From contig JAGGXW010000003.1 in the NCBI GenBank assembly GCA_021162815.1, positions 3,542 through 67,541 of the forward strand: a stretch of DNA of 64,000 nt, written 5' to 3'. The stretch's first letter is position 1. The number at the start of each line of letters is the position of its first letter. Shown one piece after another: positions 4,399 through 12,133 of the stretch. Origin of the DNA: Thermoplasmata archaeon. Its GTDB lineage: Archaea; Thermoplasmatota; E2; UBA202; JdFR-43. The notes below the pieces were generated by a model. The model had not been told where the DNA came from. It searched no databases and was given only the letters and a program-made list of their open reading frames with translations. The position numbers were made by a program, and so were the translations under genes.

Positions 4399-5311
4399 TG
4401 AGGTTGCTGAGGAAGCAATCAATAAGCTTAAAGAAAAGCATGAGGTTGTTTATAAGGAGCTGAGAGGAGAGGAACTTGCCAAGGAAATTCCAGAGTATGA
4501 TGCTTTGATGGTGAGGAGTGGCACAAAGGTGACAGCAGATATAATTGAAAAGGCTGAAAAACTGAAGGTAATAGGAAGAGCAGGCATAGGAGTGGATAAT
4601 ATTGATGTGGAGGCAGCAAGCAGGAAAGGAATATATGTTGTTAACGCTCCATCTGGCTCAACCATAAGTGTTGCAGAACTCGTCATAGGGCATATGCTCT
4701 CTCTTGCCAGACACCTTCCAAAGGCTGATTATACACTGAAGCACGGAGAATGGGCAAAGAAAAAGCTCAAGGGCATAGAGATTTATGGGAAAACCCTTGG
4801 CATAATAGGGCTGGGCAGAATAGGCAGGGCTGTTGCTGAAAGAGCAAAGGCAATGGGAATGAATGTGATAGGCTATGATCCATACATAAAGGAATGCGAG
4901 GTTGCAGAGATGATGCCTTTTGAGGAGGTGTTAAAAAAAGCAGATTTTGTAACAATACATGTTCCTCTGACGGAGGAAACAAGACATATCATCGGAAGCA
5001 GAGAGCTGGAGATGATGAAAAATACAGCGTATCTCATAAATTGTGCGAGAGGAGGAGTCGTTGATGAGAATGCATTGTACGAAGCCCTTGCCAATGGAAA
5101 AATAGCGGGCGCCGCCCTGGATGTTTTTGAAAAGGAACCTCCAGAGGGAAGCAAACTGCTTGAGCTTGGTAACATTGTTGTGTCCCCCCACATTGGTGCA
5201 TCAACCAAGGAAGGGCAGATAAGGGCAGGGGTGATATGCGCGGAGCAGATAATGAAAGTTCTTGATGGAGTGGAGCCAGATTTCTGGGTAAACAGGAACA
5301 TGATGAAATGA
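4367..5311 (+). CDS. D-isomer-specific 2-hydroxyacid dehydrogenase (D-3-phosphoglycerate dehydrogenase-like, no ACT domain)
   Basis: NAD-binding motif GIIGLGRIGRAVAERA and a catalytic-domain pattern with a conserved RGG and a His in the PHIGAST region. The likely true start is the ATG at 4379 (MKVLITDE). Confidence 0.8.
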   Translation: MVRKMKVLITDEVAEEAINKLKEKHEVVYKELRGEELAKEIPEYDALMVRSGTKVTADIIEKAEKLKVIGRAGIGVDNIDVEAASRKGIYVVNAPSGSTISVAELVIGHMLSLARHLPKADYTLKHGEWAKKKLKGIEIYGKTLGIIGLGRIGRAVAERAKAMGMNVIGYDPYIKECEVAEMMPFEEVLKKADFVTIHVPLTEETRHIIGSRELEMMKNTAYLINCARGGVVDENALYEALANGKIAGAALDVFEKEPPEGSKLLELGNIVVSPHIGASTKEGQIRAGVICAEQIMKVLDGVEPDFWVNRNMMK

Positions 5312-6981
5312 AATTTGAGGTAAAGAGCAGGTGCTGCTTTACTAGGAAGGGCATACTCAGCATTTTCGAGAGGGAGGTGGAAACCCCTGCCATATTCTGG
5401 TATGCCTCCAAGAGAATAAAGGCTCCGGAATGGGCCGAGGTGAGGCTTGGAGAGGATATAAAAGCAGGAGGAAGTTTTTTCTATCCTGCAGAAGGAGACA
5501 TGCCCTCTCCATTGATTTATCCTCACTTTTTTCCAGAAGAATTCCATGAATTCATGCTTTCCACTGGTGGCTCAGACACTTTTCAGATTGTGAGCGGGAA
5601 GATAAAGAAAAGGTATGGTGGGGAGAAGATATACATTCTTGCAAATTCAATGGAACTTTACTCCAACCCAAGAAATTTTGTTAATGCCATTGTGAATGTT
5701 AGGAATAGCATAGGCTACTCGCCATTATACGCTCCAGCAATAGCATTGCCATACAATATTCCTGTGCTTGCATACATGGGCATAGATATCTTTGATTCTC
5801 TTGCCACAATAATGATGAGCAGAGAGGGCTATCTCCTTTCATCAGAGCACTTTGTCCCGTCGGAATTGCCTTTCGAGGAAGTGCTGATGCACAATTACAA
5901 AGTCATGGAGGAGGAGCTAAGAAAAACAAGGCATGCCATCCAGCACGGATGGCTCCGCAGCCTGGCGGAAAGCAGGGCGATGCTTTATCCGGAACTTGCT
6001 TCCATGATAAGGCTTTTTGATGAGGAGCATTATGAATTTGCGGAGAAAAGATGGCCGGTGAATGGTGGCCAGATTAAGGCAACATGTATGTCCCTCAATA
6101 GAGCAGATATAAGGAGGTTTAGAGAGCGGGTCATATCAAGGTACAGGAAGCCAGAAAGTGCAAAAATTCTTCTCCTGCTTCCATGTTCTGCCAGAAAGCC
6201 GTATTCTGCGTCAAAGTCCCACAGGTTATTCAGAAAGGTTATCAATGAGTCTGCAAACAAGAATGTGATTCATGAGGTTATTCTTACTTCCCCTCTCGGA
6301 ATAGTTCCAAGAGAGCTTGAGAATTTTTATCCTGCTATGCACTATGATATCTCTGTCACAGGAAAATGGAGTGAGGATGAAAAGAAAATGCTTCTTGACA
6401 TGCTGAATGAGTATCTGAGAATAAATGATTATGATGTGATAATAAACCATCTTCCTCCAGAGATGGATTTTGTGGATATTGGAAGGAGAACAGCCAAGAA
6501 ACATGTCACAAGTGAGGAGAGCCTGAAAATGCTCCAGGATGCTTTGAGAGTGTCGGAGGAATATGAATATGTTCACCATGGAAAGAGAAGATACGACAAT
6601 GCTCATTCCATGCTTCTATTCCAGTTTGGAAAGAGCTTTATTGAAGGATGCAATGTTAAGGGCAGATTCCCGGGTTATAGAATTTTCTGTGATGACAAGC
6701 AAATTGCAGCCTATGTTCAGTCCAGAGGAATGTTTTCATTGACCCTTGCGGGAGCGGATAGAATAAAGGATAGTTACTGGGTTGAAATTGATGACTTCAT
6801 TCCAAAGGGAAGTGTTTTTGCAGCGGGAATAAAGAATGCAAGTGATGAAATAAGGTCTGGAGATGAGGTTGTTGTAATTCACAATGAAGAGATAAGGGCT
6901 GTTGGTGTGGCGGTAATGAATGGCGAGGAGATGGTGAGGAGCAGGAGAGGGGAAGCGATAAAAACAAGACATCACATATAG
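5308..6981 (+). CDS. arcS: Archaeosine synthase ArcS (TGT-like N-domain, PCx3KPY motif, C-terminal PUA domain)
   Basis: 557 aa. The motif LPCSARKPYS matches the ArcS signature PC-x3-KPY. The C-terminal ~80 aa have a PUA-like pattern (VVVIHNEEIRAVGVAVMNGEEM). Start overlaps the upstream stop (ATGA). Confidence 0.7.
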   Translation: MKFEVKSRCCFTRKGILSIFEREVETPAIFWYASKRIKAPEWAEVRLGEDIKAGGSFFYPAEGDMPSPLIYPHFFPEEFHEFMLSTGGSDTFQIVSGKIKKRYGGEKIYILANSMELYSNPRNFVNAIVNVRNSIGYSPLYAPAIALPYNIPVLAYMGIDIFDSLATIMMSREGYLLSSEHFVPSELPFEEVLMHNYKVMEEELRKTRHAIQHGWLRSLAESRAMLYPELASMIRLFDEEHYEFAEKRWPVNGGQIKATCMSLNRADIRRFRERVISRYRKPESAKILLLLPCSARKPYSASKSHRLFRKVINESANKNVIHEVILTSPLGIVPRELENFYPAMHYDISVTGKWSEDEKKMLLDMLNEYLRINDYDVIINHLPPEMDFVDIGRRTAKKHVTSEESLKMLQDALRVSEEYEYVHHGKRRYDNAHSMLLFQFGKSFIEGCNVKGRFPGYRIFCDDKQIAAYVQSRGMFSLTLAGADRIKDSYWVEIDDFIPKGSVFAAGIKNASDEIRSGDEVVVIHNEEIRAVGVAVMNGEEMVRSRRGEAIKTRHHI

Positions 6982-7772: not shown

Positions 7773-8018
7773 TTACCTCCTTTTCTTCTTTATTTTTTCA
7801 TCAAGAAGCATCAGAAGCTCCTCTATTTCATCCTCGCTCACATAGCTCTCTCTCTGCTCCATTTTTATCTCAAATAATCTCAGTCTTATTGCCTCCTTGC
7901 ATAATTCAGCGACACTGGTATAACCCAGCTCGGGATTTTTTGTTATAAGCTTTTCAATTTCCTCGTGAAGCTCCTTCGGTATTGAAATGGTGCTGTACTT
8001 GAGTTTCTTCTCTTCCAT
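7773..8018 (-). CDS. Ribbon-helix-helix (CopG/Arc/MetJ-like) DNA-binding protein
   Basis: 81 aa. The N-terminus KYSTISIPKELHEEIEKL fits the RHH beta-strand and first helix. It is a clear paralog of the ORF at 8999..9226. Confidence 0.6.
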   Translation of the reverse strand: MEEKKLKYSTISIPKELHEEIEKLITKNPELGYTSVAELCKEAIRLRLFEIKMEQRESYVSEDEIEELLMLLDEKIKKKRR

Positions 8019-8065
8019 AAAGCCTAATGTATATATTGATATATTTATTTTACTATTGTTTTGAG
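8019..8065. promoter_or_regulatory. Bidirectional AT-rich promoter region with a palindromic TATA-like element between the RHH gene and the AGT-EndoV gene
   Basis: TGTATATATTGATATATTTATTTT lies about 25 to 35 nt upstream of the ATG at 8066, and on the other strand upstream of the ATG at 8018. This fits archaeal TATA spacing for leaderless transcripts. Confidence 0.3.
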
Positions 8066-8968
8066 ATGGGTGTTAATATTCCAGATTTATATGAAGAAAC
8101 TTACATGCTAACAAAGCAGATTCCGAGGGGCGAGGTATCAACCTACGGCGCAATAGCCAGGGCGCTGGGCGATGTGATTGCGGCCCGAGCAGTTGGAAAG
8201 ATGCTGCATGAGAATCCATATAAGGAGGTGCCATGCTATCGTGTCATTCATTCTGATGGCAGGGTTGGAGGCTATGCTGGAGGTGTGGAGAAGAAAATTG
8301 AGATGCTTAAAAGAGATGGAATTGAGATAATAAATGGAAAAATTGATCTGAACAAATACCTGTTTGATGATTTTGTTACGGACATGCCATTAAAGAGGCT
8401 GAGAGAGGAGCAGGTGAGGGTAGCATCCATGGTAAAGCAGGATGGAGAACTGGAATGGAAGATAATAGGGGGGATGGATGTTTCGTACGGCAACTACGCC
8501 CACGGAGCATATGTTGAGATGGACAGTAATGGCAGGATAATAAGAGGTTATACTGTTTCAATGAAGATAAGATTTCCCTATATTCCCACATATCTTGCAT
8601 TCAGAGAGCTTCCCGTTCTGGAGAGGCTGTATGAAAAGGCAGAGGCGGATATAATAATGGTGGATGGAAATGGTATTCTCCATCCCTTAATGGCGGGTCT
8701 TGCAAGCCATTTTGGTGTTGTTATGGATGTGCCAACCATAGGTGTTGCAAAGAAATTACTCCTCGGAGAGATTTTGAATGATAGCATCATATTTAATGGA
8801 AAGGTTGTTGGAAAAAAGGTTGGCAGGGTTTACATCTCTCCAGGACATAAAATTGGTGTTGAAAGTGCGGCAAAAATTGCAAAAAATTTTATGAAATACT
8901 CCATTCCAGAGCCAGTAAGGCAGGCTCACATTCTTGCCAATAAGGAGAGGAGAAAGAGAGAGGGATAA
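8066..8968 (+). CDS. nfi: Bifunctional O6-alkylguanine-DNA alkyltransferase (C-terminal AGT domain) fused to endonuclease V
   Basis: N-terminal ~90 aa show the AGT DNA-binding and active-site pattern (STYGAIARALG ... AARAVGKMLHENP ... VPCYRVI ... GGYAGG). The remainder carries EndoV motifs (GMDVSY, YIPTYLAFRELP, VDGNGILHP, GVAKK). The ORF track starts at 8027, but its first 13 aa read like translated promoter sequence, so the start used here is the ATG at 8066. Confidence 0.8.
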   Translation: MGVNIPDLYEETYMLTKQIPRGEVSTYGAIARALGDVIAARAVGKMLHENPYKEVPCYRVIHSDGRVGGYAGGVEKKIEMLKRDGIEIINGKIDLNKYLFDDFVTDMPLKRLREEQVRVASMVKQDGELEWKIIGGMDVSYGNYAHGAYVEMDSNGRIIRGYTVSMKIRFPYIPTYLAFRELPVLERLYEKAEADIIMVDGNGILHPLMAGLASHFGVVMDVPTIGVAKKLLLGEILNDSIIFNGKVVGKKVGRVYISPGHKIGVESAAKIAKNFMKYSIPEPVRQAHILANKERRKREG

Positions 8969-8980: not shown

Positions 8981-8998
8981 CCTCATGATTTAGTGAGC

Positions 8999-9226
8999 AT
9001 GGTAAAATACAGTACCGTCTCCATACCAAAAGAACTCCACGAGGAGATAAGAAGGACTGTTCTCGCTGACCCGAGGTTCAAATACAGGAGTGTGGCTGAA
9101 TTTTCTATAGAGGCCATACTTATAAGACTGGATGAAATAAGAAGAGAACTTGAAAAGGAGAAAAGAAATAGAAAAAAAAGACTGGCAAAAATTGTCCAGG
9201 ACATTAAAAAGGAGCTGAAGCTGTAG
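8999..9226 (+). CDS. Ribbon-helix-helix DNA-binding protein (paralog of 7773..8018), first gene of the ten-gene operon
   Basis: MVKYSTVSIPKELHEEIRR aligns with KYSTISIPKELHEEIEK of the other RHH gene. The ORF track opens at 8993 with a GTG, and the ATG at 8999 is more plausible. Confidence 0.6.
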   Translation: MVKYSTVSIPKELHEEIRRTVLADPRFKYRSVAEFSIEAILIRLDEIRRELEKEKRNRKKRLAKIVQDIKKELKL

Positions 9227-9271: not shown

Positions 9272-9317
9272 TAATATGCCATGGGGTTATGGATTTGGTA
9301 GAGGATGGAGAATGGGA
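9272..9317 (+). repeat. Direct repeat, copy 1 (about 42 nt spanning RBS/start of micro-protein A)
   Basis: TAATATGCCATGGGGTTATGGATTTGGTAGAGGATGG recurs at 9489..9535 with one mismatch plus a 1-nt indel. Confidence 0.7.
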
Positions 9318-9491
9318 AGAGGAAGAGGATTTGGAGCCACACTTGGTTACTGTCCATATACAGGCTTACCAAGAGGCTGGAGATGGTTTATGCCTTATGG
9401 AAACGCAGGGGCGTATGGATACAGAGTGCCGTACACATACTACACACCTTATACACCATATTACAGGCCATACTATCCATGGTGGTGGTAA
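9276..9491 (+). CDS. Gly/Tyr/Trp-rich low-complexity micro-protein A (71 aa)
   Basis: MPWGYGFGRGWRMGRGRGFG ... YYRPYYPWWW. It shares its first 11 aa and about 42 nt with the next ORF, and its stop lies 2 nt before the next ATG. Confidence 0.45.
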   Translation: MPWGYGFGRGWRMGRGRGFGATLGYCPYTGLPRGWRWFMPYGNAGAYGYRVPYTYYTPYTPYYRPYYPWWW

Positions 9492-9535
9492 TAATGCCAT
9501 GGGGTTATGGATTTGGTAGAGGATGGGGAATGGGA
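9489..9535 (+). repeat. Direct repeat, copy 2
   Basis: See copy 1. Confidence 0.7.
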
Positions 9536-9706
9536 TGGCAGTACGGCATGCCATGGCAGCAGTATGGACAGTCATACATGCCTTATCAGCCATACCAGCC
9601 AAGTGTTGAGCAGGAACTTTATATGATTGAGCAGGAATTGAATGCCATAGAGGCAAATCTCGCAAACATAAAGAGAAGGCTTGAGGAGCTGAAAAGAAAT
9701 AAATAG
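9494..9706 (+). CDS. Gly/aromatic-rich micro-protein B with C-terminal coiled coil (DUF5320-like architecture)
   Basis: MPWGYGFGRGWGMGWQYGMPWQQYG ... followed by the heptad-like EQELYMIEQELNAIEANLANIKRRLEELKRNK. The ORF track merges it into the longer, implausible ORF at 9305. Confidence 0.5.
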   Translation: MPWGYGFGRGWGMGWQYGMPWQQYGQSYMPYQPYQPSVEQELYMIEQELNAIEANLANIKRRLEELKRNK

Positions 9707-9722
9707 GGATAGGGTTTAAGGG

Positions 9723-10229
9723 TTGATTAATATGAGAATACTTGTAGCGACAAATTCAGGTGGACTGGATGACATGGTATCATCGGTTTTTGCAAGAAGC
9801 CCCACATTTACTATAATAGAGGCTGATGGGCAGGAAATAAAGGATGTTAAGGTTATACCGAATCAGTTTGCAAACGCCGTACATGGAGCGGGAATACAGG
9901 CAGGCCAGTTTGTGGTGAGCCAGGGAATAGATGTGGCAGTTGCAGGCAATTTTGGGCCCAATGTTTCCTCCATACTTGCCCAGGCAGGGGTGAAGGCAAT
10001 TCCCGCCCAGGGAGTGGTGAAAGATGTCGTCAATGACATACTCTCTGGAAACATGCAGGCTCAATCATTGGCAACTCCAGCACCATCCTATCCTTCTCCG
10101 CAGCAGTATGCACCACCACCCTCCATAAATCCAGATGAAAAAATAGATGAGATGGAGGAGAAGATAGCAAGAATAGAGGCGATGATAAAGGAAATAAAGG
10201 ATATGCTGAAGCATCTCAGGGAGGAATAA
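9723..10229 (+). CDS. NifX/NafY-like dinitrogenase FeMo-cofactor family domain protein (PF02579-like) with Pro/Gln linker and coiled-coil tail
   Basis: MRILVATNSGGLDDMVSSVFARSPTFTIIE ... GAGIQAGQFVVSQGIDVAVAGNFGPNV ... AGVKAI fits the NifX-like fold. The C-terminus PQQYAPPPS ... EKIARIEAMIKEIKDMLKHLREE resembles the tail of micro-protein B. Confidence 0.75.
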   Translation: MINMRILVATNSGGLDDMVSSVFARSPTFTIIEADGQEIKDVKVIPNQFANAVHGAGIQAGQFVVSQGIDVAVAGNFGPNVSSILAQAGVKAIPAQGVVKDVVNDILSGNMQAQSLATPAPSYPSPQQYAPPPSINPDEKIDEMEEKIARIEAMIKEIKDMLKHLREE

Positions 10230-10230
10230 A

Positions 10231-10461
10231 ATGGCAATGGGCATGGGCAGAGGAGCAGGCGCAGGCAGCGGCAAAGGAAGAGGAGCCGGAGGCGGAGCAG
10301 GCGGCGGCTACGGCGGTAGAGGCAGAGGCGGAGGAAGAGGAGCAGGGCCAGGTGGAGAGTGCAGGTGCCCTGCTTGTGGCTATACCATGCCTCATCAGCC
10401 AGGTGTGCCATGCTTTCAGCTTACCTGCCCCAAGTGCGGGGCAAAGATGATAAGAGTTTAA
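10231..10461 (+). CDS. Gly/Arg-rich micro-protein with C-terminal C4 zinc ribbon
   Basis: GRGAGAGSGKGRGAGGGAGGGYGGRGRGGGRGAGPGG followed by CRCPAC ... CPKC, four Cys in ribbon spacing. Its ATG is 2 nt after the upstream stop, and its stop abuts the next ATG. Confidence 0.5.
   Translation: MAMGMGRGAGAGSGKGRGAGGGAGGGYGGRGRGGGRGAGPGGECRCPACGYTMPHQPGVPCFQLTCPKCGAKMIRV
10240..10355 (+). repeat. GC-rich (GGN)n simple-sequence tract inside the micro-protein gene
   Basis: About 115 nt of GGC/GGA/AGA/GCA repeats in an otherwise AT-rich window. Confidence 0.6.
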
Positions 10462-11298
10462 ATGATAATAGCTGTTGCAAGCGGAAAGGGGGGCACAGGC
10501 AAAACAACCGTTGCGACAAATCTGGCCATCTCCATAGGAAAAGCCCGCATACTTGATTGCGATGTTGAGGAGCCAAATGCCAACATTTTCCTTAAATTTG
10601 ACATGGAAAAGAAGGAGGATGTGAATGTTCTCATTCCATCCATAGATAAGCAGAAGTGCACACTCTGCGGGGATTGTGTGAATGCATGCAGATATAATGC
10701 CCTCGCAATGTTGCCAAAGGATATTCTTCTTTTTCCAGAGCTTTGCCATGGATGCGGGCTATGCAGCATGGTTTGCAAATATGATGCAATAACCGAGGTG
10801 CCGAGAAAGATAGGTGAGATACTATATGGAAAAAATGAGGAAATAGAACTGTATCAGGGTCTCCTCAACATTGGAGAGGCGATGGCAACACCCATAATAA
10901 AGGAGTTGAAGAAATATTCCAATGATATGACAATAATAGATGCTCCTCCAGGAAATGCATGCCCCACCATGGAGGCGATAATAGATTCAGATTTCGTCAT
11001 TCTTGTTACAGAGCCAACTCCATTTGGCCTTCATGATTTGAAGATTGCTGTAAGCATTGTGAGAAAATTTGGAATACCTTTTGGAGTGATAATAAACAAG
11101 TATGGAATAGGTGATGATGGAGTGGAAAAATACTGCGAGCAGGAGGGGATAAGGATTATGATGAAAATACCCCACAGCAGGGAAATAGCAAATCTTTACT
11201 CCAAGGGCATACCCTTCGTTGAAAAAATGGAGGGATGGAAGGAAAGATTTATTGAGCTTTATGAGGAGATAAAAAATGAAACAGGTGGCAATAGCTAG
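10462..11298 (+). CDS. MinD/ParA-family P-loop ATPase with inserted 2x[4Fe-4S] ferredoxin domain
   Basis: Deviant Walker A SGKGGTGKTT. Two ferredoxin-type Cys clusters (CTLCGDCVNAC and CHGCGLCSMVC) are inserted after the P-loop. Confidence 0.85.
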   Translation: MIIAVASGKGGTGKTTVATNLAISIGKARILDCDVEEPNANIFLKFDMEKKEDVNVLIPSIDKQKCTLCGDCVNACRYNALAMLPKDILLFPELCHGCGLCSMVCKYDAITEVPRKIGEILYGKNEEIELYQGLLNIGEAMATPIIKELKKYSNDMTIIDAPPGNACPTMEAIIDSDFVILVTEPTPFGLHDLKIAVSIVRKFGIPFGVIINKYGIGDDGVEKYCEQEGIRIMMKIPHSREIANLYSKGIPFVEKMEGWKERFIELYEEIKNETGGNS

Positions 11299-12133
11299 TG
11301 GAAAGGGTGGAACAGGAAAGACAACCCTCACTGCATCATTTGCATCTCTGGCAAAAGATAATACTGTATTTGCAGATTGCGATGTGGATGCATCAAATCT
11401 CCATTTAATTTTTGATCCCGTTGTTAAGGAAAAGGAGGATTTCTACGGCATGGAGCTGGCTGTTGTTGACAAGGAGAAATGCATAATGTGCATGGAGTGT
11501 AAGAAGGCATGCAGGTTCGATGCTATAACAGAGAATATTGACATAATAGCGGAGAGATGCGAGGGATGTGGTGTATGCGAATATGTATGCCCCGTCAAGG
11601 CAATAGAAATGAAGCCAAGGAAATCGGGAGAGGTTTTTGTCTCGGAATCAAGATTTGGATGGCTTGTTCATGCAAGGCTCAATATCGGTGAGGAAACAAG
11701 CGGGAAGCTGGTGGCGGCGGTGAGGAATAAAGCCAAAGAGGTGGCAGAGAAGAATGGTAAAGATATGATAATAATAGACGCTCCGCCAGGCGTTGGATGC
11801 CCCGTTATTGCTTCCATAAGTGGCGTTAATCTCGTTGTTATTGTTGTTGAACCCACGTCTGCTGCAATTCATGATATGAAGAGGGTTAAGGAGGTTGCAG
11901 ATCACTTTAAGGTGCCATGTGCTGTGTGCATAAATAAATATGATATAAATGAGGAGAAGGCAAAGGAGATTGAGGAGTATTGCAGGGAGAATGGAATTGA
12001 GATTGTTGGCAAGATTCCCTATGATACAGTTATCACAGATGCGATGGTGAATGGCAAGAGTGTTGTTGAATACAATAAGAAAGTGGCAAATATTATGAAA
12101 GATATATGGATAAATGTCAAAAATAAATTATAA
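11276..12133 (+). CDS. MinD/ParA-family P-loop ATPase with inserted 2x[4Fe-4S] ferredoxin domain (paralog)
   Basis: SGKGGTGKTT with CIMCMECKKAC and CEGCGVCEYVC. Overlaps the upstream gene by 23 nt. Confidence 0.85.
   Translation: MKQVAIASGKGGTGKTTLTASFASLAKDNTVFADCDVDASNLHLIFDPVVKEKEDFYGMELAVVDKEKCIMCMECKKACRFDAITENIDIIAERCEGCGVCEYVCPVKAIEMKPRKSGEVFVSESRFGWLVHARLNIGEETSGKLVAAVRNKAKEVAEKNGKDMIIIDAPPGVGCPVIASISGVNLVVIVVEPTSAAIHDMKRVKEVADHFKVPCAVCINKYDINEEKAKEIEEYCRENGIEIVGKIPYDTVITDAMVNGKSVVEYNKKVANIMKDIWINVKNKL

Follow-up and report, generated by a model that had tools for sequence, protein, structure and literature searches.

The fusion of an O6-alkylguanine-DNA alkyltransferase (AGT) to endonuclease V (EndoV) in the AGTendoV protein of Ferroplasma acidarmanus is said to go back to Kanugula et al. 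(2005, PNAS 102:3617), where its alkyl transfer was reportedly shown biochemically. AGTendoV of F. acidarmanus and its orthologs from Thermoplasmatales are proteins of about 300 aa in which the AGT C-terminal domain, without the N-terminal one, is followed by EndoV. In human AGT the acceptor Cys is activated via a Glu-His-water-Cys network that includes His146 (PMC10779285). According to the same review, all AGTs carry the PCHR motif, the AGT N-terminal domain is not strictly required and is dispensable in AGT-EndoV fusions, and AGTendoV of F. acidarmanus has Asp in place of Glu172 and repairs O6-alkylguanine (PMC10779285). Fusions of EndoV with ATL proteins exist as well (PMC10779285, which cites Tubbs 2009). 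The ATLs (S. pombe Atl1 and the proteins from E. coli and V. parahaemolyticus) consist of a single AGT-C-like domain, with the N-terminal domain absent, and are devoid of the acceptor Cys; the V. parahaemolyticus protein bears Phe at the His position (PWFRV).

The gene described here was found in the window (the whole stretch of 64,000 nucleotides that was analysed), and its features are listed in Table 1. In agreement with the preliminary description, its product is built as an AGT C-terminal domain fused to EndoV and shares both the architecture and the length of AGTendoV. Pfam detects PF01035 (DNA_binding_1) at aa 9-85 (E 4e-24, 84.7 bits against a cut-off of 27) and PF04493 (Endonuclease_5) at aa 124-288 (E 6.9e-46, 156.8 bits against a cut-off of 23.4). 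The superfamily model TIGR00589 (ogt) is matched with 64.6 bits, above its cut-off of 46.4, and for stand-alone EndoV the scores stay below the NCBIfam equivalog cut-offs (132.6 versus 300 and 129.1 versus 230). The fused architecture is common to 120/120 best database homologs. Taken together with the active-site comparisons given below, these data suggest that the protein is probably a member of the AGT-EndoV (AGTendoV) family of Thermoplasmatota and works as a bifunctional enzyme in DNA repair, with both activities predicted from sequence and with a Tyr/Asp pair that would represent an old, lineage-typical variant of the alkyltransferase site and not its decay.

Table 1. Positions of the AGT-EndoV gene, its domains and active-site residues, and the adjacent intergenic region within the window.
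Feature	Position	Strand	Basis
AGT-EndoV CDS, complete	8066..8968	+	300 aa plus stop; ORF list and sequence
AGT C-terminal (DNA-binding and active-site) domain, aa 1-106	8066..8383	+	PF01035; PDB alignments to AGT and ATL structures
VPCYRV motif (V55-P-C57-Y58-R59-V60)	8228..8245	+	read from sequence
Cys57, alkyl-acceptor position	8234-8236	+	aligned to human AGT C145
Tyr58, His146 position	8237-8239	+	HMMER, BLASTP, multiple alignment
Asp84, human AGT Glu172 position	8315..8317	+	alignment; covaries with Tyr/Phe at 58
Endonuclease V domain, aa 107-300	8384..8965	+	PF04493; alignment to 2w35 and 4xpu
Divergent intergenic region, AT-rich, 47 bp	8019..8065	.	TATA-like elements read from sequence

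The reading frame 8066-8968 (+) is intact and comprises 300 codons followed by a stop codon. The mechanically defined ORF opens upstream, at ATG 8027, which would add 13 hydrophobic residues that are present in no homolog. A start at 8066, with a leader that is short or absent, is plausible, since most of the aligned homologs begin at the residue matching aa 6 or just after it and since the divergent upstream ORF, located on the opposite strand, ends at 8018. The protein thus begins at the AGT C-terminal domain, and between the end of the upstream gene and position 8066 there is no space for an AGT N-terminal domain, whose absence had already been stated in the preliminary description. The start annotated in the NCBI entry MCD6512016.1 (P0121), which is identical to the window protein from Met14 onward, is Met14 and cuts a conserved helix. 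The spacer 8019..8065 contains the TATA-like elements TATATATT at 8030-8037 and TATATTTATT at 8040-8049; because of the usual archaeal TATA spacing, it is likely to serve as a putative promoter region for both the AGT-EndoV gene and the divergent small ORF.

Tyr58 lies exactly opposite the His of the PCHR motif in HMMER alignments with the solved AGTs 1mgt and 4bhc, in BLASTP with human AGT and in the multiple alignment; the assignment of Tyr to the activating-His position, for which the preliminary description had proposed such an alignment check, has passed it. The nucleophilic Cys is retained, as was also claimed there: Pro56-Cys57 is aligned to P144-C145 of the human enzyme, so that the acceptor Pro-Cys motif of AGTs is present. 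The AGT domain harbors the helix-turn-helix with Tyr27 (human Y114) and Arg41 (R128, the Arg finger), the Asn50 hinge (N137) and Lys77 (K165), and these four residues are invariant or nearly so in the homologs; the list of equivalences is completed by C57 = C145, R59 = R147 and D84 = E172. The window protein therefore shares with the canonical AGTs (human MGMT, E. coli Ogt, Ada-C and P. kodakaraensis 1mgt) the C-terminal fold, the helix-turn-helix, the Pro-Cys pair and the equivalents of Tyr114, Arg128, Asn137, Arg147 and Lys165. It differs from them in the missing N-terminal domain, in the fusion to EndoV and in the two residues of the canonical PCHR network, His146 and Glu172, the places of which are taken by Tyr58 and Asp84.

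Conservation of these positions was counted in the alignment of the query with 120 homologs (n=121). Cys57 is found in 120/121 sequences, and position 58 is occupied by Tyr in 69, His in 46 and Phe in 6 of them, i.e. 75/121 close homologs bear Tyr or Phe. Residue 58 covaries almost perfectly with positions 84, 54, 62 and 12, although this H/E versus Y/D pattern is confounded by phylogeny. Position 84 (the equivalent of Glu172) is Glu in 46/46 His proteins and Asp in 71/75 Tyr/Phe proteins; among the close homologs, Asp at this position goes with Tyr or Phe and never with His. The His proteins have Pro at position 54 (-3 from Cys), Met at position 62 (+5 from Cys) and Phe at position 12, while the Tyr/Phe proteins have Asp or Glu, then His, Asn, Tyr or Lys, and then Thr, Val or Ile, respectively. 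The full variant signature (Thr12, Glu54, Tyr58, His62 and Asp84) is present in the window protein. A PCHR-type fusion from Candidatus Aciduliprofundum boonei (P0078) has the same architecture, with 48% identity over the full length and identical EndoV residues, and such fusions differ from the window protein in having His, Glu, Pro at -3 and Met at +5 in place of Tyr58, Asp84, Glu54 and His62.

A scan of one genome per species yielded 505 genomes with a relative, of which the best 80, nearly all of them Thermoplasmatota MAGs and none from Ferroplasma, were analysed. PCHR together with Glu occurs in 24 of these 80 and PC[YF][RK] together with Asp in 53, with 3 exceptions; Cys, Tyr27, Arg41 and Asn50 are kept in 80/80. 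In a crude NJ tree combined with parsimony the aromatic state is spread over several clades, although the number of switches is not readable from a distance method at such high divergence. Judging from these counts, Tyr (or Phe) is a clade-wide, lineage-typical state that is not unusual in the AGT-EndoV family. PCHR, the textbook motif, does not hold for every AGT: in about two thirds of the Thermoplasmatota AGT-EndoV fusions sampled here, Tyr/Phe and Asp are used instead, and the statement that all AGTs carry PCHR (PMC10779285) passes over this PC[Y/F] class.

The same variant was found in the lineage of the characterised protein. A profile search in 1.84 billion representatives led to a protein of Caldiplasma sukawensis (PCYK and Asp), from it to P0343, and from there to named Thermoplasmatales proteins. 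P0343 itself is probably a Ferroplasmaceae protein. Roughly 105 matches were obtained with P0343, 77 of them with PCYK and Asp and 19 with PCYR and Asp. Here the IPCYKV motif was found in the 'O6-methylguanine-DNA methyltransferase/endonuclease V' of Ferroplasma sp. Type II, in an 'endonuclease V' of Ferroplasma sp. and in a Picrophilus oshimae protein, and IPCYRV was found in a Thermoplasma acidophilum protein; Asp stands at the Glu172 position in each of these four proteins, and the last two bear the UniRef name 'Bifunctional methyltransferase/endonuclease'. Most of the sequences at least 74% identical to Ferroplasma Type II have PCY[KR], and the pattern gave no match in two (P0436 and P0444). 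Over 285-298 aa the window protein matches its counterparts in Ferroplasma, Picrophilus and Thermoplasma with 42-44% identity and E-values of 1e-69 to 1e-76. Like these orthologs, it has Cys followed by Tyr as well as Asp at the Glu172 position. The next residue is Arg in the window protein and in T. acidophilum (PCYR) and Lys in Ferroplasma and Picrophilus (PCYK). The lineages differ as well: the window protein belongs to an uncultured hydrothermal-type Thermoplasmata lineage, whereas the Thermoplasmatales orthologs are acidophilic. The Tyr residue can thus no longer be regarded as a departure from the Ferroplasma precedent, as was done in the preliminary description.

The active F. acidarmanus enzyme very likely carries PCYK as well, as read from its congeners and not from the fer1 sequence, because the review gives Asp at the Glu172 position and Asp goes with Tyr or Phe but never with His. 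If the F. acidarmanus enzyme is indeed of the PCYK type, Tyr is compatible with alkyl transfer.

Fusions of AGT-like domains with EndoV were further classed by their active site (143 clusters at 50% identity). The Cys+His class comprises 52 clusters, with Asn (28) or His (19) at the position of Asn50 and with Tyr27, Arg41 and Lys77 kept in 50 clusters each. In the 32 clusters with Cys and an aromatic residue, Tyr27 and Arg41 are retained in all 32, and Asn50 and Lys77 in 31 each. The 56 clusters without Cys (V, I, L, A, W, T and others in its place) are the ATL-EndoV fusions of the literature; here Asn50 is mostly replaced (most frequently by Leu, Asp, Ala, Ser, Thr or Glu), position 27 is Tyr in 24 and Phe in 16 clusters, Arg41 is kept in 36 and Lys77 in as few as 11. 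The Cys+aromatic class therefore keeps the accessory residues as strictly as the PCHR class does, and conservation of the Asn hinge and of the Lys165 equivalent cleanly separates it from the Cys-less ATL-EndoV fusions.

These classes bear on the suggestion, made in the preliminary description, that the AGT domain may be a catalytically weakened, ATL-like module that recruits EndoV. Spelled out, this reading takes the domain to be dead or strongly weakened in transfer: alkylated guanine would be bound and flipped, after which incision would fall to the fused EndoV or some other nuclease. The resemblance to ATLs is considerable, since the protein has a single AGT-C-like domain with the base-flipping Tyr27 and Arg41, is devoid of the N-terminal domain, and is closest in its full-length fold to the stand-alone ATLs 3gva and 2kif; it does not extend to the acceptor residue, because Cys57, which is replaced in ATLs, is present here and strictly conserved in the close homologs and in the best 80 of the 505 genomes. 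His146 belongs to the activating network of human AGT (PMC10779285), Tyr or Phe would be unable to act as the same base, and the V. parahaemolyticus ATL has Phe at this very position. Nevertheless, the F. acidarmanus fusion, reportedly active in alkyl transfer, belongs to a genus with the same PCYK and Asp, as seen in the congener sequences. That ATL-EndoV fusions exist, and account for 56/143 clusters, provides a direct comparison: lineages truly without transfer have swapped Cys freely for V, I, L, A, W or T and have also let the Asn hinge and the Lys165 equivalent decay, whereas both are kept throughout the Cys+aromatic class and in the window protein. Constraint is relaxed in the Cys-less lineages and not in the Cys+aromatic class, which argues against a weakened, ATL-like domain. 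The conservation seen with Cys and Tyr/Phe matches that of active AGTs and not that of Cys-less fusions, so we regard this suggestion as unsupported and unlikely to be correct. A lower rate of alkyl transfer by the Tyr variant would still be compatible with the pattern of conservation.

The AF2 model of the protein, built on the 119 homologs used for the EndoV comparison below, is confident (pLDDT 94.6, pTM 0.88). The best full-length structural match of its AGT domain is provided by ATLs, with a TM-score of 0.79 (normalised to target) for S. pombe Atl1 and about 0.8 for Atl1 and the Vibrio ATL; superposition with human AGT gives an rmsd of about 1.5 Å over about 80 residues. The EndoV domain matches solved EndoV structures with TM-scores of 0.78-0.80 (Foldseek, normalised to target). 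The pTM value suggests a fixed interdomain arrangement, and the review offers the speculation that DNA translocation could benefit from the additional contacts that the fusions make with DNA (PMC10779285). Both points would fit an AGT-like domain acting as an additional DNA-binding or processivity module for EndoV, with the conserved Cys serving redox sensing, regulation or another purpose outside repair. This explanation is very improbable: conservation extends beyond the helix-turn-helix to all of the AGT residues for lesion flipping and the pocket (Tyr27, Arg41, Asn50, Lys77 and Tyr70), there is no precedent for such a role, and for Ferroplasma the data, as cited, speak for true transfer of alkyl groups.

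The EndoV half shares with EndoV (Nfi) from T. maritima (2w35) and E. coli (4xpu) the fold, the catalytic Asp/Glu/Asp/His set, the Lys and the PYIP wedge, and in comparison with these two structures its functional residues are complete; it differs from EndoV (Nfi) in the additional N-terminal AGT domain and in scoring below the stand-alone equivalog cut-offs. The metal ligands Asp138, Glu181, Asp200 and His288 correspond to D43, E89, D110 and H214 of the T. maritima enzyme in the alignment to 2w35, Lys229 corresponds to K139, and the wedge P171-Y-I-P174 to P79-P82. Among 119 homologs, D138, E181, D200, K229 and H288 are invariant, as is P171 of the wedge; the rest of the wedge is largely conserved, reaching at least 90% at Y172 and I173, while P174 does not appear in the list of conserved positions. 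A 99%-identical relative (P0001) carries the substitution D200N at a catalytic residue of this domain.

This substitution could be taken as a hint that the gene is decaying, or that the VPCYRV motif itself is a sequencing or assembly error. Such an origin is effectively refuted, and we assign it practically no probability: the reading frame is intact, Tyr at position 58 is common to dozens of species, and the identical protein is present in independent assemblies, namely as P0122 (100% identity; JGI, Logan and ENA assemblies) and as P0121 from NCBI.

For the preferred reading, a bifunctional repair enzyme with a Tyr/Asp alkyltransferase site, the following mechanism can be proposed. The AGT domain would bind the minor groove via its helix-turn-helix, and Arg41 together with Tyr27 would flip out O6-alkylguanine. 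Cys57 would then take up the alkyl group irreversibly, in a single turnover. The EndoV domain, dependent on Mg2+, would cut the second phosphodiester 3' of deaminated bases such as hypoxanthine. Replacement of His146/Glu172 by Tyr58/Asp84 may be a case of size compensation, in which a longer Tyr is combined with a shorter Asp, with the packing and the hydrogen-bond network behind Cys being kept. More speculatively, a rebuilt network might also draw in positions -3, where the residue is acidic, and +5, where it is polar. A role of residue 58 as a general base seems unlikely and the Tyr hydroxyl cannot be essential, because many relatives with Asp have Phe here, which is unable to form such a hydrogen bond.

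It is possible, although rather doubtful at present, that PC[Y/F][R/K] with Asp, the dominant configuration in archaeal AGT-EndoV fusions, represents a distinct way of Cys activation that works without a His general base. If so, kinetics, dependence on pH and temperature, substrate range or oxidation resistance would differ from those of PCHR enzymes, and EndoV might in addition respond to alkylation of the AGT domain to which it is fused. Cys activation in the PC[Y/F] class could also matter for engineering of thermostable SNAP-tag-like proteins. No structural or mutational study on Cys activation in this class was found in the literature. Text searches for a PCYR alkyltransferase and for H146A gave no match, a search for His146 and Glu172 gave one irrelevant paper, and a search for AGTendoV returned the 2023 review only (PMC10779285). 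As a discovery the window protein offers little that is new: the fusion has been on record since 2005, and in the lineage of the characterised protein Tyr is what is normally seen.

The surroundings of the gene were also compared. Ten of its neighbours in the window were checked in 80 related loci, and 0/10 recur beside the AGT-EndoV gene; without conserved neighbours there is no operon-level clue to its function. A second AGT-like sequence was sought within the window, and none was found. In this uncultured Thermoplasmata archaeon the gene has the look of a housekeeping gene for DNA repair that stands by itself. The labels of its relatives point to MAGs of hydrothermal type.

The family of AGT-like-EndoV fusions, represented here by the homologs P0157-P0305, is far broader than the literature we reached suggests. 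The alkyl-acceptor Cys is absent in 56 of its 143 clusters (50% identity), making these ATL-EndoV proteins. A subgroup with the motif CxCHR has His at the position of the Asn hinge and Asp at that of the EndoV ligand His288. Some members carry bacterial MAG labels (Campylobacterota, Bipolaricaulota/Acetothermia and Fibrobacterota). In the cluster representative P0174 the catalytic residues of EndoV are lost (Cys, Gln and Ser at positions 138, 181 and 200, respectively) and PCYR is kept.

P0001 is a homolog from another assembly with 99% identity to the product of 8066-8965. Its residue 200 is Asn, as opposed to the catalytic EndoV Asp200 (D110 in T. maritima) of the window protein; the further differences are E23K and K293E. 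The D110N variant of T. maritima EndoV is the inactive mutant used in crystallography. Asn200 of P0001 may mark an inactive allele that exists in nature, or it may stem from an error in sequencing.

The identical protein MCD6512016.1 at NCBI (homolog P0121, 287 aa) is annotated as starting from Met14. This start drops 8066-8104 and with it the N-terminal helix DLYxxxY, which is conserved and kept by the homologs. Judging by sequence, the start at 8066 matches the family better than Met14.

The AGT-EndoV gene is flanked by two small ORFs whose products are paralogous (57% identity over 49 aa, E 4e-18). Pfam search gave no meaningful match for either of them. Both contain the pattern YSTxSIPKELHEEI...SVAE...EAIxxRL, which looks like a ribbon-helix-helix fold. 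These ORFs were not found adjoining the AGT-EndoV gene in the best 80 of 505 related loci. Farther out lie a gene whose product resembles, by its domains, an archaeosine-pathway enzyme (ArcS/ArcTGT-like) and, at 9276-12133 on the + strand, clustered genes of five types.

Genes and ORFs surrounding the AGT-EndoV gene
Feature	Position	Strand	Details
557-aa protein	5308-6981	+	partial TGT domain, DUF5591, TGT_C2, PUA
Small flanking ORF	7773-8018	-	81 aa
Small flanking ORF	8993-9226	+	77 aa
Tandem small ORFs	9276-9491 and within 9305-9706	+	G/Y/W/R-rich, beginning MPWGYGFGRGW
NifX-like protein	9723-10229	+	PF02579
Zinc-ribbon ORF	10231-10461	+	Gly/Arg-rich N-terminus
MinD/ParA-type P-loop ATPase	10462-11298	+	4Fe-4S ferredoxin insert
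MinD/ParA-type P-loop ATPase, second	11276-12133	+	4Fe-4S ferredoxin insert
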